Virus record (IMG/VR): IMGVR_UViG_3300044530_000662
Location: 32,001 to 96,000 of that record
Reading direction: 5' to 3' (one strand)
DNA length: 64,000 nucleotides
Source of the DNA: a virus
In this document: in pieces, positions 13,998 to 56,035 of the stretch
How the letters are laid out: every line of letters starts with the position of its first letter
Numbering within the stretch: position 1 is the stretch's first letter
Notes under the pieces: generated by a model
What the model was told of the DNA's origin: nothing
Databases searched by the model: none
The model's input: the letters and a program-made list of their open reading frames with translations, nothing else
Made by a program: the position numbers and the translations under genes

Positions 13998-16190
13998 TTA
14001 AAGAAAGATTGGCCAGTCTGTATAGATGTAACCTCTTTGAGTAGCTCCTCCTTTTTTAGACTTAAATTTATTAACTACCATTTTACCAGCAACATCAGGG
14101 TCTATTCCTTGCTTTATTAAATCTGCATAGTATTCACCTTCTTCTTGAGCAGGTTTTTCTGGATTAAACTTTTTGTCTGTTGGAGTATAAACAACTTTAC
14201 CACCTGGGCCAGCAAGAGTCTGATAGTTAGGATATAACTGATTTAATGCATCTGTTTTCCATTTATTAGTAACAGCTGTATTATATTGATTTCTCATATT
14301 AGCTCTACCAGCTTTAATAGAATTATCAAACTGTTGATTAGCAATAGTATTTTTATCATATACTCTGTTAGCCATTGCTTGATTAAGCATGTTCTCTTGG
14401 TTTCTTACACCAACTTGATTAGCTTCAAACTGATTAGCAACATTAACATTCTGATTATTAATATTAGAAAGAGTGTTAGCAGCTTGTGCAGCTCCTTGTC
14501 CTTGTATTGCAGATAGTCTAGCTCCTAATGCTTGAGGTCCTGCAAACTGAGCAGTAGCTTGTGAAGCAATATTAGCTTGTTCTGATTGTGAAGCAAGTTC
14601 TCTTGTAGGATCTAAGAATGTAGGTCTTGGTTCTTCAAGATCAACTCTTGCTTCCCAAGGCATATATTTCTTAGTACTCATAAGATCACCAAATGCACCC
14701 ATAGTATTTACAGTATCTTGCAACCACCATTGAGGTTCTGTTCCTGGAGGAGTTTCAACATCTGCTTCAGCTTCTGCAGTTTCACAGTCTTTACAAGTAC
14801 CATCTTCATTCATACCGGGATCAGATCCATCTTCACATTCACATCTTTTCTTTTCAGTAGTACAAGGAAGACAATTACCATCAGCATCTTTACCTACCAT
14901 GTAAGTTTCTCCAGTTTTTTCATCTTTACATTCACATTCTGTTTGTGAGATTTCTTCTGGTACTGTTTCAATAGCTTCTTCTTTTTCTGCAAATTTTTCT
15001 TGAACGTCTGCTGTATTACATCTATCAAAGATTGCTTTTGATGATGGTCCCGGTGCCATGTGAGTTTTAAACTTATTTTTTTCTGAAGGCACGGTAAGTT
15101 CCTCATAAGTAGCTCCTGCTTTAATCATATCACAAATAGAACCCTCCCATGCTTTTTTATTAAAGGTACCACTACCACTTCCTGATTTAGCTTCTTTAGC
15201 AGCTTGTCTTTGAGCAGCAGCTGTTTTATTGTATTTATATTCCCCTTTAGCATCTTTTCTAGTTTCCCAAGTACTTTTACCATAGTCCTCTCTACCAACC
15301 TGTTTTGTATTAACAGGTCTACCATCAGCAGCTTGAGGCAAGTAACCTCCATAGGCCATCTCAGTAGGATTATATGGGAACATGTAGTCTTGTTCTAACA
15401 TACCTCCCATTTGCATCATAGTATCTTCTTGTGGCATACCCATTTGATCAGGAGACATTCCTGGTTCCATAGTTGCCATTTGCTCTTGTTCTTCAGGTTC
15501 TATGTTAGGTTCTTGACCTTCATCTTCAGGACCTTGTTGTTGCATCTGTTGTTTTTGAATTGCAAGTTCTGGCATTATTTGTTCTGGAGTAATTTTATTA
15601 GCTTCCATATAAGGTTGAGCAACAGCAGGAATTCCTTGAGGGAATCCTTTCTTACCTTCTTGAGCTAATGCTAAAGCACCTAACTTAATAGTATAGTTCT
15701 TAATCATTAACTCAGCTGTTTTTCTTGCTATTGCATCTGACTCAGGATCTTGTAATACTTTTCTATATTTATTAATGTCATACTGTTTTGATAATTCAGC
15801 CGGAGTGTATCCACCTTTCTTAACCGGCTTATTAAACATTTTAAGTATAGCAGGATCACTAATCTTCATAGATTGTGTATCACTATATATAAAACTATCA
15901 TCTGGAAGATTTAATGGTACACCACCACTATGGTGACGGGGTCCTTTAATAGTATAGAATGATGGCATGTCACTACCATCAATATTTCCTATTACAGTTT
16001 CACCACCTTCAGCTTCTAAGTTAGCTTTAGATCTTGGAACTGCAGATATTGTTTTTTTAACCTCAGAAGGTTTCTGACCAATATATGCATTGTAGTCTGC
16101 ACCACCCATTGCTGGAACATCATTTACTAAGCTTCCTTGAACTTGATATCCAGTTCTAGCCTGTGGTAATTTGGTTATTCTTACTTTCAT
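13998..16190 (-). CDS. 730-aa virion (cargo-like) protein with N-terminal EAEGGE...GPRHHSGGV domain, Q/M/E-rich linker, Cys doublet module and GG motifs
   Basis: ORF track. The ExEGGE/GxxHxxGGV motif is one I recognise from crAss-like virion proteins; position just before the ejected-protein genes. Confidence 0.55.
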   Translation of the reverse strand: MKVRITKLPQARTGYQVQGSLVNDVPAMGGADYNAYIGQKPSEVKKTISAVPRSKANLEAEGGETVIGNIDGSDMPSFYTIKGPRHHSGGVPLNLPDDSFIYSDTQSMKISDPAILKMFNKPVKKGGYTPAELSKQYDINKYRKVLQDPESDAIARKTAELMIKNYTIKLGALALAQEGKKGFPQGIPAVAQPYMEANKITPEQIMPELAIQKQQMQQQGPEDEGQEPNIEPEEQEQMATMEPGMSPDQMGMPQEDTMMQMGGMLEQDYMFPYNPTEMAYGGYLPQAADGRPVNTKQVGREDYGKSTWETRKDAKGEYKYNKTAAAQRQAAKEAKSGSGSGTFNKKAWEGSICDMIKAGATYEELTVPSEKNKFKTHMAPGPSSKAIFDRCNTADVQEKFAEKEEAIETVPEEISQTECECKDEKTGETYMVGKDADGNCLPCTTEKKRCECEDGSDPGMNEDGTCKDCETAEAEADVETPPGTEPQWWLQDTVNTMGAFGDLMSTKKYMPWEARVDLEEPRPTFLDPTRELASQSEQANIASQATAQFAGPQALGARLSAIQGQGAAQAANTLSNINNQNVNVANQFEANQVGVRNQENMLNQAMANRVYDKNTIANQQFDNSIKAGRANMRNQYNTAVTNKWKTDALNQLYPNYQTLAGPGGKVVYTPTDKKFNPEKPAQEEGEYYADLIKQGIDPDVAGKMVVNKFKSKKGGATQRGYIYTDWPIFL

Positions 16191-16200
16191 TATATTATAA

Positions 16201-19197
16201 TTATAAGTATTCTACTTGTCCTCCATTTGCAATGAAGTCTGCTAATTCTTCTTCTGTCATATCTACTATAGCACCTTCAGTATAATTTGAAGATCCTCCT
16301 TGTTGAGCAGATCTACTTCCCCAGTTCTGACCTTGTTCATCTGGTCTATATAGTCCTTTATCAGTTCCTGAAATTACATAATCTCCACGGTCTCTACTTG
16401 GATCAGAAGCATAAAGATTATCAGCTGTAAGATTTTCATACATCTTAGCTTGTCTCTTATTATTTTTTGCTCTATCTATAAAACCAGCTAAACCTTCTAT
16501 ACCAGCATTTGCTGAAAGAATGGCTCCTTGATTATCACCTAACCATTGCTTTTTATTTTTGTAATCTACAGAGTATTCATCTGGTTCATAGTTAGCTTCT
16601 TCTTGTAGTTTTTTTCTGCTATCCATCATTAACTCTTGTCCAACTTCTTTACTACTTCTTGTTGGTAAAGTAAGTTTACTATTAGCTGGATTGTTTTCCA
16701 TACTTACAGGAGTTTCATCACCTAGTAAAGCTTGTGGTAAAAATCTATTTAAACCACCATATTGATTTTTACCTAAAAAGGCTTTAGAAGGATCTATAAC
16801 CCTAGCTGGTGTATTATTTACAGGTTCTCTTTTTTCTACCTGATTAGCTTTTAAACCAGGTCCATAATATTGAGCACCTACACCAGGAGTATCTTGATAT
16901 GACCAGTTTCTATTTTTAGCTTGTTGCATATACTCAAGATTACCTAATCTAGGTGTAGTATCAGTAGTTTCTGGAAATTCTTCTTCTCCTCTACCTACTT
17001 CTCTAGCAGTTCTTCTTTCACCTTGTCTTATTTGTCTTTGAGCACTATTAGATAAACCTTCTGTATTTGAGAATTTTCTTTGTTCATCTTTTGTTTTAGG
17101 TGCTTGTTCTTTAGATTTAGCGGCAGCTTTTGATGTACTATCTTGAGTAAATGAATTTGTACCAGCAAGTCTTCTATCTTCAGGTTTACCAGAAGGATTA
17201 TTGTTATAAGTAACTGTGTAGTTTTTAGGTCTTCCAAAAACACCTGTCTTAGTTACATTGATATCTTTAATTAAAGCATTAGGATTGTACCCTGGCATAT
17301 TAGCAAACTGTTGACCAGTAGCTTTGTTATAAGCAGGACGCATCATTTTTGAATAATAACCTCTTTGTGGTAAGTTTGCTGGGAAATAGTTTCTCATCAT
17401 AGCTCCCCAGAATCCACCACCAAACTGTGCTTCTGGCATATAAGGATCTGATGTATCTTTAGAATACATATCATCTATGTCTTCTTGAGATATCTCTTCA
17501 TCACCACCAGACATAAATCTTTGAAGATTTCCAAATTGATCTGGCATAGGATTATCTATAACTCCACCTTGTTGTTTTTTATTTAATGAATTACCAACAA
17601 ACTTTGTTCCATCCCATACATCTGTATTCCTATAATATCCGGGATTACCTGTTACCCTCATTAGATAATCACTATTGGTCTCACCAACTTTAGGTGGATT
17701 TTTTCCAAATAGTTCAGTAACAGCTTCAGGAACATTACTTTTTTCTTGAGTAGTTGTAGAAGCAGGAGAAGTTCCCCAAGTTCCAGCATCTCCAGCAGCT
17801 GTTGCAGCAGCTCTCATTTCTTCTAATGTTGGTACACCAGCTGATTTAGCTGTAGCATCTGTACCTGTTGCTTTTGCAACTTCTTTGGTTGCTTCATTAT
17901 TAATAGTGGTTCTTACCTTTTCAGTAATTAATTTTCCTGGAGTTTTTGTAGTTTTAGCTTTATATCCATAACCATAAGCCTGTGATAATAAAGGATTATT
18001 TGCTAATTGTACTAATGGATTTTCTCCAAACTCTACAGTATATTCTTTTGGACCACCAAAGATACCTGTTTTACGTACATCAAACTTTGTTATAGGGCCC
18101 ATCATACCTGGTGCTCCACCAGGAAGATGTTTAATAGCTCTATTCATTCTTCTCATAGCTCTTCTTTGTTGACCACCAAACTGCATTTCATCCATACCTT
18201 CATAGTCTTCTGGTATAAATTGTTGTAGCTGAGGTTGAGGCATCATCATTTGTTGATGCATAGCTTGCATTTGCTCAAATTGTTTTTCTGCTTCTTCTTT
18301 AGCAATAGCCATATTGCCTTCTTTCTTAATAGAGCCAACAAAAGCATCAAGTCTATTTTTTCTTAAATCATCTCCTCTAGGATCAGCATCAGAAGCTTTT
18401 ACATCTGCTTCAGAATCTTCACCTCCCATTTGTTTTTTGACAAGTTTTAAAACAGAGTTGACATAACCTTTTTTAGTTTTAAAACCACCCATTTTAAATT
18501 CTTCTGGATCAACTGCAGGATCAACATAATCTGCTGAAGACTGTTCATCTATAGCTTCTTCTGATTCTTCAGGACTAGCCCAAGCAATATCAGCAGCAGC
18601 ATTAGATAAATACTGCTCCATTCCGGACGGTAAATATTCTGATACATCAGGGAATACAATTTGTTGTTGAGGACCAGACCAAGTGTTACCATCATTATTC
18701 ATTTCATTGAGGTAATCTTCTTCTCCGCCATCTTGATATCTTGGTGTACCACCATATCTCATCATGTCTTCATCACCAAGATCCATTACATCTATCTCTT
18801 CATCATCCATAGCAAGATCTGTGTTACCTCTAATCTTGCTCATAGGTTTATTCTCATTAAGAACTTCTTCTTCTACTTGTTCTTGAGCTTCTTCCTCTGA
18901 GTTATCTTCTTCTTCTTCTTCGGGTTCATCTTGATCAATTTTATTCTGAAGTATACCATATACTTGTTGGACATACTGATTAGCCATAGCTGGATCCAAG
19001 TTATATGCATTAACAAGTTTAGCAACAATAGCTCCTTCAGGAACTTCATTACTTATGTCTTGGTAAATAATTTGCATTAACTGTTCTTCTCCTGATGCTT
19101 GTTGTTCTTGAGCTTGTGCACCCGGATATCCTAATTGTTCAATAGATGGTTGACCACCTTCTTGAGCTTTATAAAGTCTTACTCTTCTTTTTTCCAT
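16201..19197 (-). CDS. 998-aa low-complexity acidic protein with 12 xQxGG-type motifs (putative internal/core polyprotein)
   Basis: ORF track. Motifs: AQEGG, MRYGG, YQDGG, FKMGG, KQMGG, MQFGG, KQQGG, FMSGG, AQFGG, NQYGG, AQQGG, IANGG. Confidence 0.6.
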   Translation of the reverse strand: MEKRRVRLYKAQEGGQPSIEQLGYPGAQAQEQQASGEEQLMQIIYQDISNEVPEGAIVAKLVNAYNLDPAMANQYVQQVYGILQNKIDQDEPEEEEEDNSEEEAQEQVEEEVLNENKPMSKIRGNTDLAMDDEEIDVMDLGDEDMMRYGGTPRYQDGGEEDYLNEMNNDGNTWSGPQQQIVFPDVSEYLPSGMEQYLSNAAADIAWASPEESEEAIDEQSSADYVDPAVDPEEFKMGGFKTKKGYVNSVLKLVKKQMGGEDSEADVKASDADPRGDDLRKNRLDAFVGSIKKEGNMAIAKEEAEKQFEQMQAMHQQMMMPQPQLQQFIPEDYEGMDEMQFGGQQRRAMRRMNRAIKHLPGGAPGMMGPITKFDVRKTGIFGGPKEYTVEFGENPLVQLANNPLLSQAYGYGYKAKTTKTPGKLITEKVRTTINNEATKEVAKATGTDATAKSAGVPTLEEMRAAATAAGDAGTWGTSPASTTTQEKSNVPEAVTELFGKNPPKVGETNSDYLMRVTGNPGYYRNTDVWDGTKFVGNSLNKKQQGGVIDNPMPDQFGNLQRFMSGGDEEISQEDIDDMYSKDTSDPYMPEAQFGGGFWGAMMRNYFPANLPQRGYYSKMMRPAYNKATGQQFANMPGYNPNALIKDINVTKTGVFGRPKNYTVTYNNNPSGKPEDRRLAGTNSFTQDSTSKAAAKSKEQAPKTKDEQRKFSNTEGLSNSAQRQIRQGERRTAREVGRGEEEFPETTDTTPRLGNLEYMQQAKNRNWSYQDTPGVGAQYYGPGLKANQVEKREPVNNTPARVIDPSKAFLGKNQYGGLNRFLPQALLGDETPVSMENNPANSKLTLPTRSSKEVGQELMMDSRKKLQEEANYEPDEYSVDYKNKKQWLGDNQGAILSANAGIEGLAGFIDRAKNNKRQAKMYENLTADNLYASDPSRDRGDYVISGTDKGLYRPDEQGQNWGSRSAQQGGSSNYTEGAIVDMTEEELADFIANGGQVEYL

Positions 19198-19255: not shown

Positions 19256-21892
19256 TTAGTCTACATATTCTATTACCCAACCTCCTTTTTTGTATTCATC
19301 TATTTCTTCTGGAGTAAGATCTAATTCTATAAAGTTATTTACATCACCTCCTTTTGCATAACCTGTAGCATCAAGTATAGTTTTTGAATAATAAGGATCG
19401 GGTCTTGATAAAAAATCTGTGGGTGCAGTTATACTATTTAAAAAACCTTCTTTAGTAGCTTGCATTCTTGTTGGTATTGAATAACCTTTTTTTCTAAGAT
19501 CTTCAACAGTTATATTATTTTTCTTTATAAATTGTTTAGCCTCATCATCCATATCACTGTATGGATCATAAGTTAATGCAGCAGTTGCGGCACCTGCACC
19601 ACCTACTACAGGTATTGCTTTACCAAATTTTTCAGCAACATTTTGTAAACCAGCTCCTGTAGTTGACCATTGAAATTCATTGTTTAATAGCTTTTGCTTA
19701 TTAATATCTACATATCTATTTGAAAAAGGTAGTCTTCTATTTAAAGATACACCTTCATCTAATAAAGATACTTCAGTTAATGGATTACCTGTAGTCTTAG
19801 ATTGTAAAGGAGTTAAAGCATTTTTTTTATTAAAAGTTCTTCCCATAAAACCTTGTCTCATAGGATCTCCAAGAACTATATCAGAATTATCTACTGCATC
19901 ATCAAACTTTGCAGCATATATATCAGTATTAGTTCTATTCATTTTAGTAGTTATTGGATCAGCTTGTCCTTTACCTATTACATTTTTTGCTTTTCCTATA
20001 ATACCTTGTTGTTCAACAAGATTACCATTCTTAATATTCTTATTAATTACATTACCTAAAGGCTTAACAGCTCCTTCTAATTTTTTACCATAACCAGGTA
20101 CATAATTTAAAGGACTAATTTTATTTAAAGTTTTATTAAGAACACCCATAGATGGTGAAACATATGCTTGGTCTAATAAATTAGCTCCTACTTTATTTGA
20201 AGGCCCTACTGCATTTTTTAATAACTCTGGAGAAATACCTGCATTTAATGTACCACTGGTATTTTTAGTAGGTATTGTTTTAGCTACATTACTAATATTT
20301 TTAGTTTTATCACCAAGTTTGGATAAACTACTAATTCCTTTAGTACCAATATTTGTTAAACCTTTTAAATCAGTTCCGGCCATAAATGCTTCACCTAAAT
20401 TTAAAGCTGCTTGTCCATAATTGCCTTTATTTGCATTTACTGCAGAAGATGTTGCATAAGAAGCAGGATTAATTATATTAACTAAATCATTAATTGGATT
20501 ATTATCAGCACCTGTTATTTTTTTATAATATTGCTGATTAGTATTTTGATCATCTCTCAAAGCACCAGATTGACCCATTAAAGGTCTATTACCAGACATA
20601 GCATTAGCACCTGTAAGTATAGGATCTGCCATAAATGCACTTACAGCATTTCCTGTTTTTTGTAAAATACCTGCATTGTCATAAGCTTTTTGTTCATTTT
20701 GTTTAAACTCTTCTAGCTTATTCTCATCTATTTTTTTTAAAAAATTAGGATCTGTTGTTAAAGCTTCTCTTGTAAGTTGCTCTAAAGATTTAGTATTATC
20801 TTTTGCAAAATATTTATCTTTTAATAATCTAGCTGCATCACCAGATGTTACTAAAGAATTAACTTTATTATCAAACTCTTTTAAATTATCAGATAAAGAC
20901 AAAGGTTTATCTAAACTGTTTTCTATATGTTGTACTTTTGGAATACTACTATTACTATTTACTTTTTGTATTTCAGTAGTTTTTTTAGCTACTGGAGGAT
21001 TCTTTAATGTTTTTATAGCAGCTGCTTTTTTTGTTGAATCTAAAGGATCAATACTTTTTTTAGTTTCTTGAGGAGCTGTAAAAAAATTACTTACACAAGA
21101 TTTAGAATTACTATCCCAACGGTAACCTTGAGGACAAGTATTTTTTTGTAAACCTGTTTGTGCTTTTATTAACTCTGGTACAGATATATCTTCTACTACA
21201 TAACCACCATCTTTGTATGCTTGTATCTCTTCAGGGGTAAGATCTAACTCAATGAAGTCATTAACATCTCCTCCATTTTGTTTTTTAGTCATAGGATCAA
21301 ATCCATTAACAAAAGCATTATAGTTTACTCTATTATCTCTTAATGGTAAATTAGGTATACCACCTACATTAAAGTTATCTCTATTACCAATAAAGTTCTG
21401 AGATACTCCAGTACCTAAAGGCATACCATATTCTCCACCTGATGCATAATACTTAGCATTAGGATCAAATACTTTTCTTTTTTTATCCTTTGGTTTTTTA
21501 AATAAATTATTCTCAGTAAATAATTTATTAGTAGCATCTAAGCTTCTAGAGTATGCTTTAGATGCTAAACCTTTTTTACTAGGTTTAGGCATAACAACTA
21601 ATTTTTTCATATAACCTCCTCTTTTCATCTGAGGATATTCATCAACATAGTCTGCTTCAGGAAACATATATTCTTGACCTGGATACATCATCTGTGGTTG
21701 ACCTACGTTAGGTTGTGCATATACAGGATATGGTACTCCTTGCATAGTTATATTACCACCAGGTATTCTTGTATTTTGTCCAGGAAATTTCCATTGTCCT
21801 GCAGGATCATAGATTATGTCCTTTGATTTTTTAGGAGCTTTGGCTTTAGTCAACTCCTTAGTTGCTTTTTGTAATATTCTGCTGTTACCCAT
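19256..21892 (-). CDS. 878-aa modular protein with GG motifs and a duplicated ELDLTPEEI module (putative internal virion polyprotein)
   Basis: ORF track. Motifs: MKRGG, YASGG, FNVGG, KQNGG, YKDGG, YAKGG, YKKGG; internal repeat. Confidence 0.6.
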   Translation of the reverse strand: MGNSRILQKATKELTKAKAPKKSKDIIYDPAGQWKFPGQNTRIPGGNITMQGVPYPVYAQPNVGQPQMMYPGQEYMFPEADYVDEYPQMKRGGYMKKLVVMPKPSKKGLASKAYSRSLDATNKLFTENNLFKKPKDKKRKVFDPNAKYYASGGEYGMPLGTGVSQNFIGNRDNFNVGGIPNLPLRDNRVNYNAFVNGFDPMTKKQNGGDVNDFIELDLTPEEIQAYKDGGYVVEDISVPELIKAQTGLQKNTCPQGYRWDSNSKSCVSNFFTAPQETKKSIDPLDSTKKAAAIKTLKNPPVAKKTTEIQKVNSNSSIPKVQHIENSLDKPLSLSDNLKEFDNKVNSLVTSGDAARLLKDKYFAKDNTKSLEQLTREALTTDPNFLKKIDENKLEEFKQNEQKAYDNAGILQKTGNAVSAFMADPILTGANAMSGNRPLMGQSGALRDDQNTNQQYYKKITGADNNPINDLVNIINPASYATSSAVNANKGNYGQAALNLGEAFMAGTDLKGLTNIGTKGISSLSKLGDKTKNISNVAKTIPTKNTSGTLNAGISPELLKNAVGPSNKVGANLLDQAYVSPSMGVLNKTLNKISPLNYVPGYGKKLEGAVKPLGNVINKNIKNGNLVEQQGIIGKAKNVIGKGQADPITTKMNRTNTDIYAAKFDDAVDNSDIVLGDPMRQGFMGRTFNKKNALTPLQSKTTGNPLTEVSLLDEGVSLNRRLPFSNRYVDINKQKLLNNEFQWSTTGAGLQNVAEKFGKAIPVVGGAGAATAALTYDPYSDMDDEAKQFIKKNNITVEDLRKKGYSIPTRMQATKEGFLNSITAPTDFLSRPDPYYSKTILDATGYAKGGDVNNFIELDLTPEEIDEYKKGGWVIEYVD

Positions 21893-38886: not shown

Positions 38887-39540
38887 TTATTTCTTTTTGG
38901 ACTTTACAACTCCACCTTTTTTCTTTTCTGGCATTATGGGATATCTACCTGGTTCTGATGATGTACTCGGAGGAGAAACCCAATTTACTTTTGGTTTTTT
39001 TTCAGGTACTTCAAATGTTGGTGGTACAACAGAAAATGGACCTTTTTGAGTTTTAGCATTTTGCCAACCTGTATTTTTTATTCCTTTTCCTGATGTAAAT
39101 TTATCAAATCCAGAATTACCTCCATCTTGTTTTTTAATAATACCACCTGTCTTTCTATAAGAGTCTTCAATATCTTTTTGATATTGTTGTTCTTTAGTAA
39201 GCTTTTTAGGTTTCTTTTGAACAGCTTTTTGTAAATCTTTTTTTGCTTGTATTTCTTTCATTGTCATATTACCTTTTGGACCACTCCCTCTATAAATAGG
39301 TTTACCTGCGGCTGCTCTTTGTTTTTGATATATAGACAATTCTTTTGAAATAGTTTTTGCTATTGGAGCAGGTTTAGAAACAACCTTAGAAGCAGCTGCA
39401 ACAGGTTTGATATATTTAACGGCTGTTTTTACCAGCTTACCCAATTGAGCTTTAGGTAAAGACTTTTTTACTACAGCTTGTCTAGCTTCATTAGCTTTTT
39501 TAAAAAATGTAAGTGGATGTTCTTTAGTAGTCTTTTTCAT
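38887..39540 (-). CDS. Very basic Lys-rich protein with GG motifs, 217 aa
   Basis: LPKAQLG, RKTGG, KQDGG, KKKGG; Lys-rich throughout. Confidence 0.6.
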   Translation of the reverse strand: MKKTTKEHPLTFFKKANEARQAVVKKSLPKAQLGKLVKTAVKYIKPVAAASKVVSKPAPIAKTISKELSIYQKQRAAAGKPIYRGSGPKGNMTMKEIQAKKDLQKAVQKKPKKLTKEQQYQKDIEDSYRKTGGIIKKQDGGNSGFDKFTSGKGIKNTGWQNAKTQKGPFSVVPPTFEVPEKKPKVNWVSPPSTSSEPGRYPIMPEKKKGGVVKSKKK

Positions 39541-39541: not shown

Positions 39542-39706
39542 TTATTTCTTTTTTGCTTTTGCCATTTTCTTAAAAGTAAGAGCTAATGTTTTAGCTTTAC
39601 CTGTACAACCTGGTTTAGTTATTGGAGTACACTTACCTGCAGTACCTCTTCTTTTAATAGAAGCTGTAGCTTTTTGAATCCAGTTTTTATCCTTTTTCTC
39701 AGCCAT
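39542..39706 (-). CDS. Small basic protein, 54 aa (not in track)
   Basis: Hand translation MAEKKDKNWIQKATASIKRRGTAGKCTPITKPGCTGKAKTLALTFKKMAKAKKK; fills the gap exactly. Confidence 0.7.
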   Translation of the reverse strand: MAEKKDKNWIQKATASIKRRGTAGKCTPITKPGCTGKAKTLALTFKKMAKAKKK

Positions 39707-39708: not shown

Positions 39709-41040
39709 TTAACAGCTTTTTTTACCTTTAACCATTCCACCTTTTTTAGCTTTTTTAATAGGTTTAGGTTTTGGACCATTAGCAATAGCTACACCACTTG
39801 CAATAGGTTTTAACATAGGTTTTGATCCTGTTGATTTCATAGCTTTAATTTTAGACTGACCTGTAGACTGACCTGTAGATTGTGGTATAGATTTTGGTCT
39901 AGGTATTTGACGAGTAGGATTATTACCTGTTGAAAAACCACCCTGTAATGGATATGATTTAGTATTTTTAACAACAGATACTTTAGGTTTAGGTTTTGAA
40001 GATATTGTACCGCCTTTTTGCATTTTAACAGCACCTCCTTTTTTCTTCTGACCAATTTGATAGTTAGGATACATTTCATTTAATGTATCTGTATTAGCTC
40101 TATTATTTCTTGTCTGATTTATCTTTGCATTATATTCTTGTGTCCCTTTGTCTCTTATTTCTTTACTGAGTATTTTCATGTTTTCAGCTTGTTGTTTTGC
40201 AAGCATTTGTTTATCATAATCTAAAGCAGCATTTTTTGATTTACTACCGCCATCTTGATATTTTTTTGCAGTATCTTTTTGAAGTTTGTTTTTAGCAGCT
40301 GCTAGTTTTAATGAAGCTTCTTTTTTTGATTGAAGCATTTTAGTAGCATTTACTTTTTTAGCTATTTCATATGGATCTTTAGAAGATATTTTTTGCATTG
40401 CAATACTTGTATCACCACCATCTTGATATTTTTTAACAGCACCACCTTTTTTCTTACGCATGCCTACAGGTACTGTACCTACACCAGAAGAAGATCTTAC
40501 TCTTCCTGGAGCTGGAGAATGTTGTACTGAAACTGATGCACCAAATTTAGCTTTAGGAGTTTCTTTAGCTTTTTTAGCAGCTTTCTTAGCTCTTACTTTA
40601 TCAGCAATAGCTTTAGCACCTATACCCATCATACCAGTAAGAGCTGTACCTACACCAATTCTAGCACTTTTACCATCAAGAATTCCTGCTTTTACACACT
40701 CACCATTGATATCTCTATATCCTGGAGGGCATCCAGTAGATTTAGTTGAGCCACCTTTTTTAAGAGTTCTACCAGCATCAGTTCTTGGATCATTAGAATA
40801 CTTAGGCATTCCAACAATACCCATTGCTCCACCCATTTGCATTTTAGTAGTAGTCTTACTACTGCCTTTAAGCATTTTTTGTACGGCAGCTTTTTTTTCT
40901 TCAGCTGTTTTAAATGTTTTACTTTTACCAGTAGGTACTAAATAACCAGTTTGATTAAGTTTTGATAATTTTTTTTCTCCACCTGTTTGCATTTTTTTCA
41001 TTTTAGTGGAGCCTCCACATTGCATACATTTAGTTTTCAT
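39709..41040 (-). CDS. Very basic 443-aa protein with 10 GG motifs (putative DNA-condensing core polyprotein)
   Basis: MQCGG, MQTGG, MQMGG, LKKGG, KKKGG x2, YQDGG x2, MQKGG, AKKGG. Confidence 0.65.
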   Translation of the reverse strand: MKTKCMQCGGSTKMKKMQTGGEKKLSKLNQTGYLVPTGKSKTFKTAEEKKAAVQKMLKGSSKTTTKMQMGGAMGIVGMPKYSNDPRTDAGRTLKKGGSTKSTGCPPGYRDINGECVKAGILDGKSARIGVGTALTGMMGIGAKAIADKVRAKKAAKKAKETPKAKFGASVSVQHSPAPGRVRSSSGVGTVPVGMRKKKGGAVKKYQDGGDTSIAMQKISSKDPYEIAKKVNATKMLQSKKEASLKLAAAKNKLQKDTAKKYQDGGSKSKNAALDYDKQMLAKQQAENMKILSKEIRDKGTQEYNAKINQTRNNRANTDTLNEMYPNYQIGQKKKGGAVKMQKGGTISSKPKPKVSVVKNTKSYPLQGGFSTGNNPTRQIPRPKSIPQSTGQSTGQSKIKAMKSTGSKPMLKPIASGVAIANGPKPKPIKKAKKGGMVKGKKSC

Positions 41041-41052: not shown

Positions 41053-41325
41053 TTAACAGTTCCATTTTCTTAGTGAAAGAGCCTTTCTTGTAGGTCTTCC
41101 TTTTTCATCTTTCATAGGTCCAGGCATGCCTGACATTCTAGCACAAAAACTTTTTCTTCTATTTGCATCTTTACTTCCAGCTTTAAGCTTAGAAGGTTTA
41201 GTAGTTACAGCTGTCTGAAGTTTACTACCAGGATTAGCAGCTCTATAACTAGCTACTCCTTTAGCATTTAATCCTCCAGTTTTATTCTTACCTTCAGATC
41301 TTGTCCAAGCTGGTGTTTTTGCCAT
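41053..41325 (-). CDS. Small basic phage protein (DUF6321-like), 90 aa
   Basis: AW.R.EGKN..GGLNAKG.ASY...RRKSFCARM...LRKWNC signature. Confidence 0.65.
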   Translation of the reverse strand: MAKTPAWTRSEGKNKTGGLNAKGVASYRAANPGSKLQTAVTTKPSKLKAGSKDANRRKSFCARMSGMPGPMKDEKGRPTRKALSLRKWNC

Positions 41326-41327: not shown

Positions 41328-41666
41328 TTATGCTTTTGTAACTTTTCTTCCCATACCTACTTTAGACTTCTCAGCTTTTTTAGCAGCTAGTTTAGAAGGA
41401 GTTAGTTCATACTTTGTTTTAGGAGTATCTTTTGATACCTTTCTTGTAGGCCGGCAGTATTCATTTTTACCACCGGCTCCACAAGCTTTTCCTGATTTTG
41501 TGTCTTGCCACTTTTCTGCTTGCCATCTTTTAAGATCACTACCAGCTTTAGTCTTTCTTACTGTGCCTGAACCTTTACGGCATTTGGCAATAGCTTGAGA
41601 AGCTCTAGCTGAAGGAAACACAGCGTACTGTGCTTTTACTTTTGTATAGCAAGCATCTTTAGGCAT
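41328..41666 (-). CDS. Small basic phage protein (DUF5872-like), 112 aa
   Basis: KDACY.KVK..Y.VFPSA.AS..IAKCRK plus LKRW..EKW...CG...YCRP. Confidence 0.55.
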   Translation of the reverse strand: MPKDACYTKVKAQYAVFPSARASQAIAKCRKGSGTVRKTKAGSDLKRWQAEKWQDTKSGKACGAGGKNEYCRPTRKVSKDTPKTKYELTPSKLAAKKAEKSKVGMGRKVTKA

Positions 41667-41809
41667 TACTTTACAGCCTTAACTTTTTTAGCTTTTGCTT
41701 CTTTAACAGGTGCTTCAGTTGCTTTTTCTTGCTCCTTAGAGTAAGCTGGATTTAATTCAAATCTACCTGGAGATGTTTCTACATAAGCTGATACTTCTGT
41801 CTTTTCCAT
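41666..41809 (-). CDS. Small protein, 47 aa (not in track)
   Basis: Hand translation MEKTEVSAYVETSPGRFELNPAYSKEQEKATEAPVKEAKAKKVKAVK; its TAA overlaps the next ATG. Confidence 0.6.
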   Translation of the reverse strand: MEKTEVSAYVETSPGRFELNPAYSKEQEKATEAPVKEAKAKKVKAVK

Positions 41810-41833: not shown

Positions 41834-42037
41834 TTATTTCTTCTTAACGGTCATTCCATATTTAGCTTTTGGAACAGCCGTTTTAGGAGCTGCAGATGTA
41901 CCACCTGAATGTCCTCTAGCTACTTTAGAAGCAGCAGCTTTTGGATTTACACCAGACTTAACACCGTTAGATCCTGCTTTTTTTTGTACAGATAAGTTAC
42001 CATTTAAACCTACCTTAACACCTGATTTTGTTGCCAT
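41834..42037 (-). CDS. Small basic protein, 67 aa
   Basis: K/G/A-rich; ends PKAKYGMTVKKK. Confidence 0.6.
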   Translation of the reverse strand: MATKSGVKVGLNGNLSVQKKAGSNGVKSGVNPKAAASKVARGHSGGTSAAPKTAVPKAKYGMTVKKK

Positions 42038-42039: not shown

Positions 42040-43539
42040 TTATTTCTTTTTAGATTTCTTTTTATTTGGATATAATGCTAAAGCAGTTGATCCACCAGCT
42101 ATACCAATTAGAGTGCGTTGTAATTTTTTGTCAGACTCAGCAGCTTTAAATTTTTCCCAATCTTCAGATCTTTTTAAATTAGCTGTTTTTTTATTATAAC
42201 TATCTACTTTAGCTTTTTTATATTTATCTGAAAGTTGTTTAACACCTATCTTAGCAGATTTAGTAGCACTTTTAGCAGCACCCATAGCTGGTTTAATATA
42301 GTTGGCTGCTGTTTTTACAATTTTACCATATTGAGCTTTAGGTAAAACTTGTCCACCTTTTCTCATTTTTTCTTTTTTTGACTTATCAATGTTAGCATTC
42401 ATTTTTTGTTCAGCTGTCATTGCTAGTTCTTTAGGTCCAGTATACTCAATAGGTCCTGCTTTTTTAATCTCCATTTTTTCTGGAGCTGTTACAGTTTTAG
42501 CTGGAGCAGTTTTAGGTTTTGAACTAGCCATTTGTTTATTAATGATAGCTTGAACTTTATCATAGTCTGCACCTAATGCTTTTTTTCTATCAGCACCTGA
42601 ACCATATTTACCACTCATTACATCTTTTGCTTTTTGTTCAATTGATGTATTGTTAACTTTAGGAGTATCTTTTTTCAAGTTAGTTTCTATCTTAGTAGTA
42701 TTCTTACCTGTTACTGTAGCTTTAACAGCACCGATAACTTTAGAACTTGTTACTGGTTTTTTAGCAGCTGGTTTTTTAGCACCTGGTCTTTCTAAACCTT
42801 CAATATAACCTTTTACAAATTTTGGATTACTTGTTTTAGTAGAACTTTTAGGAGCTTTCTTAGCAGCATTAACAGCAGCAGAACTAATACCTGTTGCTTT
42901 TTTAGGACCGGCTAAACTTTCTTTAACATTTTTTAAAGTGTTAGCATTTCTTTCAGCAGGTGTCATGTTTTTATAACGTGAATCACTTGCTGGTATAGCT
43001 TTCTTAGAATCTGTTTTTGGTTTTGTAGATTGTTTAGTTTCAGCTTTTGTAGTATCAGGTTTTTTAGTAAGAGTTTTAGCTCCAGCTTTTATTGCTGTTC
43101 CTTTTTTCTTATCAAAAGCTCCAGATGAAGTGGCAGCTGCAAGAGCTGCTGCTGTACCATAAACAGCAAGCATTGCTTTACCTTTTATATCTTTTCCTTT
43201 ACTAGCTTTTTTACCTACTTCAACAAAATCTGTATATTTTGGTGCTTGTTGTGCAATCTTACCAGCTTTAGCTAAAGCAGTACTTTTACCAGAACTTATT
43301 AATTTAGCTTTACTTACCGTACTTGCATTTTTTGTTTGAGTAGCAGGATAATTATTTCCAGGTTTAGCTACAGCTGTAGATGTAGATTTTGATTTAGAAA
43401 CATTTTCTGCAGCTTTTTGACCATATGATTTTGTTTTTTCTGTAGCTTTTTTAAATGCATCTCTAGATGTATTTTTTGTTTTAGCTGGTAAATTAAAACT
43501 CATTTGGAGTTGTTTAGCTGTTGTTTTTTTCTTTGCCAT
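42040..43539 (-). CDS. Histone H1-like Lys/Ala/Thr-rich protein, 499 aa
   Basis: AKKPAAKKP-type tracts; MRKGG and LPKAQYG motifs. Confidence 0.6.
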   Translation of the reverse strand: MAKKKTTAKQLQMSFNLPAKTKNTSRDAFKKATEKTKSYGQKAAENVSKSKSTSTAVAKPGNNYPATQTKNASTVSKAKLISSGKSTALAKAGKIAQQAPKYTDFVEVGKKASKGKDIKGKAMLAVYGTAAALAAATSSGAFDKKKGTAIKAGAKTLTKKPDTTKAETKQSTKPKTDSKKAIPASDSRYKNMTPAERNANTLKNVKESLAGPKKATGISSAAVNAAKKAPKSSTKTSNPKFVKGYIEGLERPGAKKPAAKKPVTSSKVIGAVKATVTGKNTTKIETNLKKDTPKVNNTSIEQKAKDVMSGKYGSGADRKKALGADYDKVQAIINKQMASSKPKTAPAKTVTAPEKMEIKKAGPIEYTGPKELAMTAEQKMNANIDKSKKEKMRKGGQVLPKAQYGKIVKTAANYIKPAMGAAKSATKSAKIGVKQLSDKYKKAKVDSYNKKTANLKRSEDWEKFKAAESDKKLQRTLIGIAGGSTALALYPNKKKSKKK

Positions 43540-44656: not shown

Positions 44657-46276
44657 TTAGAATGATCCACCAGTGATTGGGTTTCTCATAACAATTTTCA
44701 ACACTTTAGTTGGGTCTTTTACCCAGATAGCTGGCATTGTTTGAGACATCATAACACGGTAACCATTGAATTGTCCTGAAGACTGGAACCCTTGTGTACG
44801 TCCCATGTAGTCCATAGTACCATTTTGATACCACCATTTCAATTGATTATCCCAAGATAATTTCAACAAGAAGATGTTGTCATTAGTATTATCTGTGATA
44901 TCAAAGATAATGAATGAGTAAGATGATAATGGGAAACCATCAATGATTGGGTTCTCAATATCATTAGTATGAACATTGTCAAATGCTGGGTTCAATACAA
45001 ACTTAACATTTGCCAAGAAAGGAATCACATAAGAAGTGTAAGCAAATCCAAAATTCAAGTCCATACCTTTACCAGTGATTGCACCAATATCAGCAGCTTG
45101 AATTAATAAACCTGAAGATACTGCTTCACGTTTGATAGCTTCATTTACCATTCTCATTCCACCCATACCAGTTTGTACAACTAATGAGCGTTTTGGATCT
45201 GGACCTTGGAACTCAACTTTACCATTGAAGAAGTTGTAGATCTCTCCACGGAACAAATCAAGTGTAAAGTTATTTTTGTTGTATACTCTTTTGAAAGAGT
45301 TATCCAACTGTTTCCAAAGACCTACAGACAATCTAACATCATCTGGTCCATCTTGACGTACTCTACCACCATGACCCCACATTAAGTAAGTCTCAATGTC
45401 AGTTGCAATTTTAGATAAATGTGCAGATTCCATTGTAGTTAAGAAAGTTCTTGACAAGTCTCCATTGTCAAATGCTTTTTTAACTTTATCCTTACCTAAT
45501 TTAGTTACCATATCTTCTAAAGATGTGATAGATGGATCAATGTTTTTGTCAAATGTTCTCCAGATCTCAGTTACAGGAACTGTACCATCTGCATTCATTC
45601 CACCTTTGATCATCAAGTCAGCACGGCTAGAGATAGAATAATGTACGTGAGCTTCAGCACCACCAACATAGTTGTAGAATTCACGGAATCCAGCTCTTGT
45701 TGTAATGTCAGAGAATCTCTCACCATATTCACCACGTGCAGAACCTTTACGGAATACTTTAGTTCCATTGTTCAAATACTTGTTATCCAAATATTTGTAG
45801 TTGTCATTATCTACTAATTGTACTGTATAGATGAATCCATCTCCAATAGGAAGGATATCTTCTGAAGGTACAATGTACATCTCAGCACCATTGTATTTGT
45901 CATAAGTGATGATATCACCATGTCCAAACTCACGTCTGCTTAATTTGATACGGAATGTTGTTCCATCAACACCTTTGAAAGTATTGTCTGGTTCAATATC
46001 CTCAATAATGTAAGGTAAGTCTGTAGACACAGGTGTCTGCCATTTGTACTCACCACGCGCGTTATCAACCATGATAACATTTTTACCACCAAATGATGAC
46101 ATTTGATAAAGTGGCATTTCAACTTTCTGAGCCATAGCCCATAAGTCAACTGGGCCTAAGTCCATAGGCTCAGCATCTTTTAGCATGTTCACCAAGTGGT
46201 AAGAATCCACATGGGAAGTAGCTTGATACGCGGTATCTCTAAGGAATATACCATTGTTTAAAACTGGAGTTGCCAT
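44657..46276 (-). CDS. Major capsid protein (crAss-like), 539 aa
   Basis: Position portal-scaffold-this gene; followed by a terminator; lower AT skew typical of a highly expressed gene; E...LMWG.GG and VKFVLNPAFD motifs. Confidence 0.85.
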   Translation of the reverse strand: MATPVLNNGIFLRDTAYQATSHVDSYHLVNMLKDAEPMDLGPVDLWAMAQKVEMPLYQMSSFGGKNVIMVDNARGEYKWQTPVSTDLPYIIEDIEPDNTFKGVDGTTFRIKLSRREFGHGDIITYDKYNGAEMYIVPSEDILPIGDGFIYTVQLVDNDNYKYLDNKYLNNGTKVFRKGSARGEYGERFSDITTRAGFREFYNYVGGAEAHVHYSISSRADLMIKGGMNADGTVPVTEIWRTFDKNIDPSITSLEDMVTKLGKDKVKKAFDNGDLSRTFLTTMESAHLSKIATDIETYLMWGHGGRVRQDGPDDVRLSVGLWKQLDNSFKRVYNKNNFTLDLFRGEIYNFFNGKVEFQGPDPKRSLVVQTGMGGMRMVNEAIKREAVSSGLLIQAADIGAITGKGMDLNFGFAYTSYVIPFLANVKFVLNPAFDNVHTNDIENPIIDGFPLSSYSFIIFDITDNTNDNIFLLKLSWDNQLKWWYQNGTMDYMGRTQGFQSSGQFNGYRVMMSQTMPAIWVKDPTKVLKIVMRNPITGGSF

Positions 46277-46303: not shown

Positions 46304-47560
46304 TTAAAATCTCTTGAACATATTTGCTCTTGGGATTGTTCTTTGTTGAGGTTTTGCGGTCCCTCTTTTTTGTTCTTCAAAAGCATCTGTTGATGATGAA
46401 GAAGCAAGTTTCCTAGACTCCTCTGTCTTTAATTGTCTTACTGTTTTTTCTACAGCTTGTTTACTACCTTGCTCTCTGATCTTTGCTTCAAATCCATCTG
46501 GATCTGCAAGTAACCAAAGTGCTTTAGCAATTAATCCATGATTAGGTTCTACAAACTGATACTTTTCAAGTAAGTGTCCTAACATGTTTGTTTGTTTACC
46601 AGAAATTGATGGGTAGTTAGGTTGAACTAATCCTGAGTATAACATACTCTGAATTTTTTTGTCAAGCTTAACACCACTTAGTTCACCAGTTACAAGAGTA
46701 TTATATACACTATCAGTATATGCTTTAGCTTGTTTTTGTTGTTGATCTTTTCTATGCTCTTGTTCTGCTAATTGACTTGCAACAATTTCTTCTTGCATTC
46801 TGTCTAACTTAGGTTTAAACTGATTAGCTTTTTGTTCTAGTTTACCAACATCAGACCAATCTTCAATTTCAGATTCAATCTCTTCAGGTGTACCAAAGTT
46901 TGTTGCATAAAGATATTGTCTTGCAATTTCAGCTTGATCATTTTCATCTGATGGATTTAAAGATCTCATTTCTTCTACATGAGCAAGAGTTCTGAATAAG
47001 CTTTTAAGGTCTTGACCACCATCAGCTACATACTTTGCTGCTATTTGAAGTTCTTCTGGAAGAGAGTTAAAGAATTCTTTTGGTGTATCTTCTCTAACTT
47101 TATTTTCTCTTTCTTGGAAGTTTGCTTCAAATAATTCTCTGAAGTCTTTAGTAGTATATTCATCTAATGATTTATCATCATCAAATGGAACAAGTGTACC
47201 TTCTTCAATCATTTTACTAGCTAATTCAGCAAGACCTGATTTATCAACCTTTGGTCTTCCTTTATTACCAGCATCTTCTTCTTGAAAAATTAAGTCTTCT
47301 AGCTCAGCAATTGTTTCATCAACTTCTGTTTTCTTTTCTTTGGCTTCTTGCTTTTCAGCATAAGTAGCCGTAGAGTTGTCAAGGAACGTGGTATCAACAT
47401 TCTCCTTTGAGAATACTGATTTAGGTTTTTCAGACTTATCATCTGGTAACATGATGTTTGCTGCACCAGGGTTACCAAAGATCTCATCAATATTTACATC
47501 TACTTGTTCTACCGTTGTAGAATTTAGGACCTCAGCAAGGTCTTTTGTTTCTTCACTCAT
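46304..47560 (-). CDS. Acidic scaffold-like protein (crAss gene 77-like), 418 aa
   Basis: Acidic N-terminal half, coiled coil, between portal and MCP. Confidence 0.65.
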   Translation of the reverse strand: MSEETKDLAEVLNSTTVEQVDVNIDEIFGNPGAANIMLPDDKSEKPKSVFSKENVDTTFLDNSTATYAEKQEAKEKKTEVDETIAELEDLIFQEEDAGNKGRPKVDKSGLAELASKMIEEGTLVPFDDDKSLDEYTTKDFRELFEANFQERENKVREDTPKEFFNSLPEELQIAAKYVADGGQDLKSLFRTLAHVEEMRSLNPSDENDQAEIARQYLYATNFGTPEEIESEIEDWSDVGKLEQKANQFKPKLDRMQEEIVASQLAEQEHRKDQQQKQAKAYTDSVYNTLVTGELSGVKLDKKIQSMLYSGLVQPNYPSISGKQTNMLGHLLEKYQFVEPNHGLIAKALWLLADPDGFEAKIREQGSKQAVEKTVRQLKTEESRKLASSSSTDAFEEQKRGTAKPQQRTIPRANMFKRF

Positions 47561-52614: not shown

Positions 52615-53130
52615 TTAAGAATCATAAGATAACCCAATTCCTCCTCTAACTTTACTAGACTGTTCATCTTGTAGGTCTTTGTACACACCCTTAAATGATT
52701 GTCTAATGCCATCAAAGTCTTTTGCTAATGCTCTTATCTGAGCTATGTTACCATCTTTACCATCTGTGATTTGTGCAGTAGACAAGTAATTAGATATCCT
52801 ATCAAGTGCTTTTTGCATACCCCCATATGCTCTGGATGTTGGAGTTTCATATAATTTTTCACAGAACTTAAGAGCATTAAATATATCCTCATCTTCTGTT
52901 GAGAATTCTCCATCTATTTCTCTTATAATCAATGATTCTTTTTCTATCTGTGGTGTATGAAAGAAAGGATTCAAATCTGGATCAGGACATGTCATATAAA
53001 ACAAGTACTGGTATATTTTTAGATAATCATCTGGATAATTATCCATGATATCTTTTAGAGATTTAAGTGTATAGCAATGTTCAGTTGGAACTACTGTTCT
53101 GTTCTGTACATCAAATAGTTTAATCAGCAT
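52615..53130 (-). CDS. Conserved helical protein, possible terminase small subunit, 171 aa
   Basis: Immediately upstream of terL; inference from position. Confidence 0.4.
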   Translation of the reverse strand: MLIKLFDVQNRTVVPTEHCYTLKSLKDIMDNYPDDYLKIYQYLFYMTCPDPDLNPFFHTPQIEKESLIIREIDGEFSTEDEDIFNALKFCEKLYETPTSRAYGGMQKALDRISNYLSTAQITDGKDGNIAQIRALAKDFDGIRQSFKGVYKDLQDEQSSKVRGGIGLSYDS

Positions 53131-55306: not shown

Positions 55307-55308
55307 GA

Positions 55309-55676: not shown

Positions 55677-55707
55677 AAAAAAATCCAGGCATAGTATATA
55701 CCTGGAT
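55677..55707 (-). terminator. Rho-independent terminator
   Basis: ATCCAGG...CCTGGAT stem followed by a T-run on the minus strand. Confidence 0.7.
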
Positions 55708-55726
55708 CTCTATAATTTGTATGTAA

Positions 55727-56035
55727 TTATTTTTTCTTAGTCATTGTTTTGGCTTTAACAATACCACCTTTTTTATTTTTATCTAGCATCTTTTTAACAC
55801 CTAGTCCTGCGGCACCTGCGGCACCTATCCCTAGAATAGCACCTAATGCACCACCGCCTCCTCCACCACTTCTAGAAGATGATCTAAACTTAGTTGTTTT
55901 ACCACAACCACTTTTTCTTCTTCTTCTTTTTTTACCATCAGCTGCTACATATTCTTCCATACAACTATCTTCTGTACTTCCGCCCTCAGCATAACTCTTC
56001 ATAGATCTAATGATCTGGTTTTTACTATCTATCAT
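55727..56035 (-). CDS. Small basic protein with GG motifs and a hydrophobic Gly/Ala segment, 102 aa
   Basis: YAEGG, NKKGG, poly-R/K tract, GALGAILGIGAAGAAGLG. Confidence 0.6.
   Translation of the reverse strand: MIDSKNQIIRSMKSYAEGGSTEDSCMEEYVAADGKKRRRRKSGCGKTTKFRSSSRSGGGGGGALGAILGIGAAGAAGLGVKKMLDKNKKGGIVKAKTMTKKK

Follow-up and report, generated by a model that had tools for sequence, protein, structure and literature searches.

A short peptide ending in Gly-Gly, matching the pattern [AYMFK][QKRA]xGG, recurs through a set of proteins encoded in a 64-kb stretch of DNA (64,000 nucleotides, here called the window) from an uncultured lake crAss-like phage; the window lies inside a 117-kb virus record of IMG/VR (IMGVR_UViG_3300044530_000662) that CheckV rates as 99% complete. 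We confirmed that this motif is real, that it is conserved across the lineage of the phage and that it is confined to proteins that are likely internal or ejected, encoded both directly downstream of the muzzle gene (proteins A, B and C) and in an array of basic proteins after the capsid gene. The reading that we favour, tentatively and with confidence a little short of even, is that the motif serves as an uncut docking or loading code of packaged and ejected proteins. It fits best because sites are invariant within disordered sequence, conservation of the connectors and tails described below extends to both sides of the Gly-Gly (GG), several GG pairs lie in folded parts, a site in the cargo protein gp45 of crAss001 is uncut, and no known GG protease was found in the genome. 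Our literature search returned no published description of the motif.

Enrichment was measured against 1,000 shuffles that preserve the composition of each protein. The seven open reading frames (ORFs, named here by their first coordinate; Table 1) in which a preliminary description of the window had counted the motif comprise 3,867 aa and contain 30 matches, compared with 3.10 ± 1.73 in the shuffles (maximum 10), and our recount agrees with its counts and places. The other 39 ORFs (16,328 aa), which include the portal, terminase, capsid, muzzle and ring proteins, contain 5 matches against 3.30 expected, which is chance level; the preliminary description had called the motif rare in portal, terminase, capsid and tail proteins. 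Taken singly, B (16201; 9 matches versus 0.6), A (19256; 6 versus 0.4) and 39709 (9 versus 0.7) reach counts that none of the 1,000 shuffles attains; enrichment is moderate in 38887 (2 versus 0.17, 6 of 1,000 shuffles as high) and weak in C (13998; 2 versus 0.37, 54 of 1,000). ORFs 42040 and 55727 hold one match each, not significant taken alone, and a single-Gly variant is all that 41834 contains; the three are counted as members because they share modules and tails with the others. Those single matches, and the low complexity of the proteins, are what could be said for a chance or compositional artefact of Gly/Lys/Gln-rich sequence, but the shuffles never approach the observed counts and the sites form invariant alignment columns, so we regard this explanation as already refuted and scarcely credible. 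A repeat at the DNA level was ruled out as the source, since the Gly codons differ between sites (GGT, GGA, GGC) and selection therefore acts on the protein.

Conservation is concentrated at the motif itself. We detected 197 homologues of B, and in an alignment of 41 of them, reaching down to ~40% identity, the GG pairs of seven sites make up 14 of the 49 invariant columns, with two further pairs nearly invariant; in the alignment of C, G29/30, G89/90 and G281/282 are invariant while their surroundings diverge. Conservation scores are 0.82-0.89 at GG, compared with a mean of 0.54. When the sites of the B family are pooled, G-G is preceded by Tyr, Phe or Met at -2, by Gln at -3 (44%, a 6.3-fold enrichment) and by Lys or a hydrophobic residue at -4. 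The overall consensus can be written h-(P/K)-(K/A)-Q-x-G-G, and LPKAQxG is an example of its single-Gly variants. Many homologues carry a single Gly at some sites (AQYG, QEGM), and the kept core is therefore (K/A)-Q-x-G. The segments between GG sites range from 5 to 535 aa, with net charges from -29 to +25.

The position of A, B and C points to a role as virion cargo. The muzzle gene is followed by A, B and C and then by ORFs of 1,029, 2,568 and 4,301 aa, and the order muzzle-A-B-C is kept in the contigs of relatives (L085-L143). At the corresponding position, crAss001 encodes the cargo proteins gp45 and gp46 together with virion polymerase proteins, so that in both phages the genes at the cargo position stand between the muzzle gene and giant polymerase-associated genes; the gp45 gene, like that of A, comes right after the muzzle gene (PDB 7QOG, 7QOI, 7QOJ, 7QOL, 8CKB; Pfam PF25725; Bayfield et al. 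2023, PMC10172136). gp45 is a proven virion cargo protein, in which residues 425-552 form a portal-bound domain and residues 214-245 a helix bound to the tail barrel (PMC10172136); the Pfam model crAss_CARG1 (PF25725) spans its residues 424-555. Protein cargo fills a separate zone of the crAss001 particle and is presumed to be unfolded in part (PMC10172136, PMC10136315). The sequence of gp45 contains five (A/S)(F/Y)GG sites and the end KKAKGGKVRTKKKK; among these sites FSAYGG ends at residue 210 and is followed by Pro, A-F-G-G occupies 425-428, and the next, FAYGG, ends at 563. The solved domain starts on AFGG 425-428 and runs through this site uncut (PMC10172136), and therefore one typical site is ordered and uncut in the mature virion. 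Neither the crAss001 structure paper (PMC10172136) nor a 2023 review mentions the motif or any proteolysis.

gp45 and the internal proteins of T4, with their capsid-targeting peptide, are the closest known systems. Features of gp45 that recur among the window's proteins are a long, partly unfolded chain, repeated sites, a hydrophobic Gly-rich segment with a basic stretch behind it, and a tail of the KKAKGGKVRTKKKK kind; unlike crAss001, this lineage has three such proteins (A, B and C), connectors split between genes and a separate array of small basic proteins, and sequence or profile similarity to gp45 is not detectable (hhalign of C against gp45: probability 0.2%). A search of C against the PDB with Foldseek returned nothing at E <= 0.001, VIA-align wide gave only generic long-helix matches (Z <= 8.2, residues 514-647) and did not really test the N-domain, and PDB sequences searched by phmmer yielded no relevant match to A, B or C. 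PHROGs and Pfam matched none of the motif proteins except 42040 (CW_7 and amidase-like) and two DUF proteins of the array.

An AlphaFold2 model of B, computed with its alignment, has a mean predicted local distance difference test (pLDDT) score of 43 and is mostly disordered, with ordered pieces at residues 3-9 (a strand), 36-90 (a helical domain), a helix ending in KKQMGG258 and a C-terminal strand-helix-strand at 977-997; most of the GG sites of B would therefore be conserved islands in disorder. C is predicted to have a folded N-domain (residues ~40-215, pLDDT 55-85), a disordered middle (219-345) and long helices, and it ends in KSKKGG followed by GYIYTDWPIFL. Its GG pairs 62/63, 89/90 and 126/127 lie inside the confidently folded N-domain, the strict instance VKKGG126/127 at pLDDT ~80, and these three are therefore predicted to be turns, not linkers. 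The disorder of B, together with the many sites per chain separated by charged spacers, would also suit generic flexible hinges or weak 'stickers' that have no partner and are not cut, like the FG or [FY]GG motifs of phase-separating proteins, such that cargo condenses in a protein zone beside the portal and threads unfolded through portal and tail. The (A/S)(F/Y)GG form of the gp45 sites and the cargo zone with partly unfolded cargo in crAss001 (PMC10172136, PMC10136315) agree with that picture, but each site is an invariant column across distant homologues, the enrichment of Gln at -3 and of hydrophobic residues or Lys at -4 points to specific recognition, and the connectors and tails described below are longer, two-sided motifs; we therefore consider plain hinges or stickers quite improbable. 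One relative has its B homologue in two overlapping ORFs (559 + 497 aa; L139:2982-6090) whose break lies away from any GG site, which is a frameshift or an assembly error.

Three of the GG sites in A (residues 203-250) belong to one conserved module of ~45 residues, the connector, which runs in the order GG, strand, acidic helix (...LT.EEI..Y..), GG, strand (Y-V-V-E-D-I) and then S-V-P-E-L-I-K-A-Q-x-G. In the A family of relatives we counted 34 internal copies and 46 at C-termini. Residues to either side of the connector's middle GG are strongly conserved; the pair itself is often QG, AG or DG in this family, so the kept feature is a turn. The same module is split across two gene borders: A ends in ...YKKGGWVIEYVD and B begins with M-EKRRVRLYKAQEGG, and likewise B ends in ...FIANGGQVEYL and C begins with MKVRITKLPQARTGYQ, the upstream protein ending with the acidic half and the next beginning with a basic strand. 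The C-terminal end of B is almost invariant in 120 homologues. In 27 of 27 distinct pairs, B has its C-terminal connector and C its N-terminal V(K/R)I(K/T) strand, and both are absent in three pairs from one clade. A complex prediction with B residues 930-998 and C residues 1-200, made as a single run, scored 0.13 against a mark of 0.32, which speaks neither for nor against docking.

The second group of motif proteins is encoded in an array of eight ORFs, nearly all with a combined Lys and Arg fraction (K+R) of 0.22-0.27, between a conserved 338-aa protein after the capsid gene and a ring-protein gene at 38185. Across 43 relatives that have both flanking genes and a capsid protein at least 90% identical, this interval varies from 1.5 to 4.9 kb and from 5 to 11 ORFs. 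The 299 distinct array ORFs (56 clusters, 43 singletons) are strongly basic, 95% of them having K+R of at least 0.19 with a median of 0.25, and they contain [QKR]xGG 420 times, compared with 101 ± 10 in shuffles; the DUF5872 and DUF6321 proteins are the only stable members. Many members share a tail, (K/R)(K/R/M)GG-(S/A/V/M/T)-(V/I)-K-x-KKK, which is conserved on both sides of GG and common to otherwise unrelated small proteins. GG falls within the last 12 residues in 24% of array ORFs. In the window this tail is present in 38887, 39709 and 55727; the last of these is encoded elsewhere, and proteins like it sit inside the arrays of two relatives (L015 and L055). ORF 39709 has two further copies in its interior, where KKKGGAVK occurs twice, and looks as if several array units had fused. 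Between 38887 (residues 28-69) and 42040 (residues 399-437) there is an alignment at 55% identity; the preliminary description had called such modules identical, and while the sharing holds, the shared LPKAQxGK.VKTA..YIKP stretch of these two proteins is only ~55% identical.

Four smaller observations concern the array. The DUF6321 (41053-41325) and DUF5872 (41328-41666) proteins both match PHROG 727, in which both parts form one protein, and DUF6321 members have a conserved C-terminal Cys in their ...LRKWNC end. Residues 304-335 of 42040 form a CW_7 peptidoglycan-binding repeat (E = 7e-11) accompanied by weak amidase/endolysin PHROG matches, which would suit a cell-wall-binding protein carried in the head. 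ORFs 55727, 39709 and 42040 have Gly/Ala-rich, glycine-zipper-like hydrophobic segments followed by Lys clusters; crAss001 gp45 has a similar segment in its predicted transmembrane helix (residues 136-158), and the three proteins are possibly membrane-inserting ejected peptides.

The basic composition of the array raises the alternative that two unrelated features have been lumped together, namely histone-tail-like DNA-binding ends in the array and separate structural joints in the cargo. The median K+R given above would agree with this, as would the prime side of the motif, which is GG-(S/A/T)-(T/V)-K in the array and GG-(D/E/Q)-(P/V/L) in the B family; moreover, the tails of histones H4 and H2A carry K-G-G-K and K-Q-G-G-K. 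However, the same Q-x-G-G core (KMQTGG, KYQDGG, KKQDGG) is present in basic and acidic proteins alike, residues 611-657 of C and 275-328 of 39709 share a module (E = 7e-6), and gp45 holds both kinds in a single chain, which makes two separate features very unlikely.

The main rival to an uncut docking code is a code of protease cut sites, which we hold to be rather unlikely. Polyproteins would then be cut after Gly-Gly into small acidic and basic peptides, either in the head or, in better agreement with the evidence, after ejection into the host, by a packaged zincin-like domain, a host peptidase or an unrecognised phage protease. Enzymes of clan CE have such sites: adenain cuts at (M/I/L)XGG|X, pS273R of African swine fever virus (ASFV) at GG|X, poxvirus I7 at AG|X and Ulp1/SENP at Q-x-G-G, the C-terminal processing site of SUMO. 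The form of the motif resembles the GG|X sites of the viral core-protein proteases, and its Q-x-G-G resembles the SUMO/Ulp1 site; as in clan CE core processing, Gly-Gly ends a short peptide that recurs in proteins putatively located in the virion interior. A cut-site code would also account for the N-terminal lean of conservation around GG, for the coincidence of gene borders and internal joints at the same module, and for 39709, with its former ends kept inside what look like fused array units, and it would agree with the near absence of Pro at P1' in the B family (0.4% versus a background of 6.3%).

Set against these points, the Pro depletion rests on ~12 orthologous sites and so is not independent evidence; in the array, Pro is not depleted (4.3% versus 5.2%), and the typical gp45 site FSAYGG|P has at P1' precisely the residue that most peptidases refuse. 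The AFGG site of gp45 is uncut in the solved virion, and several GG pairs are inside folded or strand-helix-GG-strand units. The register differs as well, with hydrophobic residues or Lys at P5 and Gln or Lys at P4, whereas adenain has M/I/L at P4, and up to 14 sites per protein, internal as well as C-terminal, depart from the C39 leader pattern, in which one N-terminal leader of about 15-30 residues ends in GG. Indels showed no significant excess immediately downstream of GG (10.8% of events against 8.5% of positions, P = 0.31; 12.8% against 6.6%, P = 0.13), and we therefore make no claim that modules are swapped precisely at these joints.

Searches for an enzyme point the same way. The whole 99%-complete genome contains no match at E <= 10 to any of nine Pfam protease families (C48, C39, C39_2, C5, C57, OTU, S78, S77 and ClpP); the accessions searched were PF00770, PF03290 and PF02902 for clan CE, with no match to any of the three (C63 was not searched), PF03412 and PF13529 for C39, and PF03420, PF04586 and PF00574 for prohead proteases and ClpP. 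No prohead protease gene was found in the head module; the protein encoded between the portal and capsid genes is acidic, Cys-free and scaffold-like. The preliminary description had reported that no C5, C48, C39 or HK97-type protease was visible in the window, which thus extends to the genome as a whole; its proposal of GG-delimited polyproteins matured by a dedicated protease, in the manner of adenovirus or ASFV, received no positive support. What stands of its account is the motif system, together with the confinement of the motif to proteins that are likely internal or ejected.

Among ~70 ORFs scanned with Pfam, the peptidase-like items were a CHAP protein, a DUF2201_N protein and a zincin-like HEAWH signature that no model covers. 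The first (172 aa; 56196-56714, minus strand), a CHAP / NlpC-P60 cysteine peptidase with intact Cys and His motifs, is encoded beside 55727; considered as a GG protease candidate, it is more simply, and most likely, an endolysin. The second is a 434-aa early protein encoded outside the window (8189-9493 of the genome, plus strand; L003), with a putative DUF2201_N metallopeptidase (HELLH) and a VWA-like DUF2201. Sortase (LPXTG), GlyGly-CTERM/rhombosortase and transglutaminase Gln-Lys cross-linking were considered and dropped because of wrong spacing, lack of an enzyme or incompatibility with ejection.

The zincin-like signature, in full YHEAWHV...EEMLAEDF, belongs to the 4,301-aa giant protein, and this domain is the sole candidate for a packaged peptidase. 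Its region has no Pfam, LPD23 or PDB sequence match, and the nearest Atlas clusters are polyvalent proteins with LPD23 (score 0.93). Zincin-like domains in polyvalent proteins of phages and conjugative elements were reportedly proposed by Iyer et al. in 2017 to release passenger domains; the present case is similar in that an HExxH domain sits in a giant, predicted injected, multi-domain protein, and differs in that Pfam LPD23 does not match and that the giants themselves are not enriched in the GG motif. crAss001 gp47 shares the signature YHEA(W/F)HV...EE.(M/L)AE.F (residue 2157) and is present in virions (PMC10172136), so that a metallopeptidase-like domain seems to be a conserved part of crassvirus cargo. 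This favours cutting and keeps late cleavage, after ejection, possible; however, the giant zincin-bearing proteins hold the GG motif at chance level only.

We also matched, by peptide mass, the matrix-assisted laser desorption/ionization (MALDI) peak lists of a 2018 gel of crAss001 virions (bands 1-10; PMC6235969, supplement 14). Bands 1-9 resolve into gp44, gp47, gp49 (with gp44), gp20, gp26/gp22, gp22/gp25, gp25 and gp23. In bands 1-10 gp45 never rises above the decoy score; full-length gp45 is thus not prominent, as cutting would predict, and semi-tryptic GG peptides are matched 2 times, compared with 3.8 for random cut sites. These data neither show nor exclude processing.

In the docking or loading code that we favour, the motif would be a short linear peptide acting as an uncut joint or handle in proteins that are packed inside the particle and ejected. 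It would take three forms: isolated handles in the long disordered stretches of A, B and C; the ~45-residue connector, inside A and split across the A|B and B|C borders; and the C-terminal tail KKGG-h-V-K-x-KKK on many members of the hypervariable basic array. By acting as a hinge or turn, Gly-Gly would offer the adjoining strand or tail to one shared partner within the procapsid; the portal, the ring proteins, the acidic scaffold, the interior of the shell and a neighbouring cargo protein are candidates for this partner. Such a handle would let very different, rapidly exchanged proteins be loaded, and perhaps kept ordered for ejection. The preliminary description had named a docking signal as its alternative, and this is the better fit, with the partners so far being candidates.

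Several observations weigh against this reading. Conservation is somewhat higher N-terminal of GG (0.60-0.69) than C-terminal (0.50-0.59), as expected for non-prime-side recognition by a protease. The placement of A, B, C and the array proteins in the virion comes from gene order, by synteny with crAss001, and Pfam cargo models (including PF25725) and hhalign do not detect these proteins; from this synteny we infer virion presence, and binding and the identity of a partner are likewise inferred. The joint loss of the B connector and the C strand is a single evolutionary event and thus only suggestive. Finally, crAss001 carries a zincin-like domain in this compartment of its virion, and the domain is conserved in the present phage.

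A bolder form of the docking idea, which we consider unlikely, makes the motif a universal Gly-Gly-hinged address tag of crassviruses, by which any protein with the handle, the split connector or the KKGG-x-V-K-x-KKK tail would be clipped into an ordered cargo chain (muzzle, A, B, C, polymerase proteins) or loaded into the head. If true, it would explain how a fast-evolving arsenal of small injected proteins can be swapped. In a variant, the co-packaged zincin would cut the tags of the chain once ejection has taken place and not before, giving a timed release of peptides in the host.

The T4 internal proteins IPI-III, which are packaged along with the DNA and then injected, are small, very basic and rapidly exchanged, are encoded in the head region and have nothing in common but a short terminal peptide; their N-terminal capsid targeting sequence ends in L/I-x-E and is removed by the prohead protease gp21. 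The lineage of the window likewise has hypervariable small, very basic proteins in the head region with a shared short terminal peptide, and differs from T4 in that this peptide is C-terminal and internal and based on Gly-Gly, that connectors are split, that S77 is absent and that packaging of the proteins is putative. In phiKZ and SPN3US, inner-body and head proteins are processed by gp175 and gp245, respectively, at S/A/G-x-E, with cleavage shown by mass spectrometry; they set a precedent for many head-interior proteins carrying one repeated short code, while code and protease family differ from those considered here. T4 gp21 and phiKZ gp175, as precedents for cleaved internal proteins, had been overlooked in the preliminary description. 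The present case is unlike clan CE systems in that no such enzyme was found, P5 rather than P4 carries the hydrophobic residue, one site is uncut and some sites have Pro at P1'. Docking itself is known from encapsulin cargo-loading peptides and the coat-binding C-terminus of P22-type scaffolds, where a short terminal peptide behind a flexible Gly-rich linker docks varied cargo inside an HK97-fold shell. Similarly, the scaffold-like protein of the window's relatives ends in GG..FKR(S.FKNFK); there is, however, no sequence relation to encapsulin or P22, the internal handles have no counterpart there, and docking is putative here.

Crassvirales are among the most abundant gut phages and are common in lakes and seas, and at stake is how megadaltons of cargo are loaded and ordered. 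A short tag common to likely cargo proteins, from a lake phage to crAss001, makes cargo loading open to direct experiment. Some T4 internal proteins are anti-defence weapons, and the tagged, hypervariable array may likewise store factors that, once injected, counter host defence or handle DNA. Should the tag suffice for loading, foreign proteins could be packed into crassvirus particles with its help. According to the 2023 review, the mechanisms of crassvirus assembly are yet to be established, and no protease is mentioned there.

The phage itself is a very divergent crAss-like phage, far from crAss001 as judged by its portal (Table 1). GenBank phages gave no DNA or protein match to it, while more than 590 contigs in IMG/VR encode a capsid protein that is at least 90% identical. 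The minus strand carries all late genes of the window. The acidic protein encoded between the portal and capsid genes would, from its position and composition, be the scaffold, and is a possible electrostatic partner for the basic tails.

Table 1 Features of the window, with positions counted from its first nucleotide.
Feature	Position	Strand	Length (aa)	Details
Terminase	50408-52612	-		PHROGs
Portal	47652-50402	-		21% identical to crAss001 gp20
Scaffold-like acidic protein	46304..47560	-	418	Between portal and capsid genes; D+E 0.20, Cys-free
Capsid protein	44657-46276	-		PHROGs
Ring proteins	genes at 27417 and 28448	-		Pfam CrAss_Ring_1 and CrAss_Ring_2
Muzzle protein	21892-27417	-		Pfam crAss_MUZ
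Protein A	19256..21892	-	878	Directly after muzzle gene; 9 GG sites, 6 fit the pattern
Internal unsplit connector of A	21143..21286	-		Residues 203-250; ends h-x-KAQxG
C-terminal connector of A	19259..19360	-		Ends ...YKKGGWVIEYVD
Protein B	16201..19197	-	998	Acidic, mostly disordered (predicted); 14 GG sites
N-terminal handle of B	19153..19197	-		M-EKRRVRLYKAQEGG; basic strand (predicted, residues 3-9), then first GG
C-terminal connector of B	16204..16305	-		...DMTEEELADFIANGGQVEYL; strand 977-981, helix 982-990, strand 994-997 (predicted)
Protein C	13998..16190	-	730	N-terminal handle MKVRITKLPQARTGYQ; predicted folded N-domain, disordered middle (MQMGG, AYGG), long helices
First array member	42040..43539	-	499	K+R 0.23; KMRKGG then LPKAQYG module, CW_7 repeat, K-rich end
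Array member	41834..42037	-	67	...SGGTSAAPK..., AKYG single-Gly variant, KKK end (same ends in relatives)
Small array ORF	41666..41809	-	47	Basic tail
Array member, DUF5872	41328..41666	-	112	Conserved in relatives
Array member, DUF6321	41053..41325	-	90	KNKTGG; end ...LRKWNC
Array protein	39709..41040	-	443	K+R 0.22; 11 GG sites; end KKAKKGGMVKGKKSC
Array member	39542..39706	-	54	End ...TFKKMAKAKKK common to relatives
Array protein	38887..39540	-	217	LPKAQLG module, KKQDGG, C-terminal tail EKKKGGVVKSKKK
Ring-protein gene closing the array interval	38185	-		
Displaced array-type protein	55727..56035	-	102	Gly/Ala-rich hydrophobic segment, then tail KNKKGGIVKAKTMTKKK
Zincin-like HEAWH signature	645..659	-		Residue 827 of the 4,301-aa giant protein, whose ORF runs off the window start

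Three further observations concern neighbouring genes. The capsid protein (44657-46276, minus strand) ends in NPITGGSF in nearly all relatives. A 171-aa protein encoded just upstream of the terminase gene (52615-53130, minus strand) ends in S(K/R)VRGG(I/Q)G(L/M)(A/S)YD., which places a ubiquitin-like ...RGG near its C-terminus. Several relatives have an extra ORF of ~212 aa, GIY-YIG-like at its start (...GIYKIT...), inserted after gene C and before the gene of 1,029 aa (L086:7234-7875, L089:7032-7673, L092:6321-6962, L099:3428-4063, L100:11269-11904 and L103:4162-4803); the insert and the 1,029-aa gene both start with MATYLQ, and the insert looks like a homing endonuclease that has duplicated the first codons of its target.

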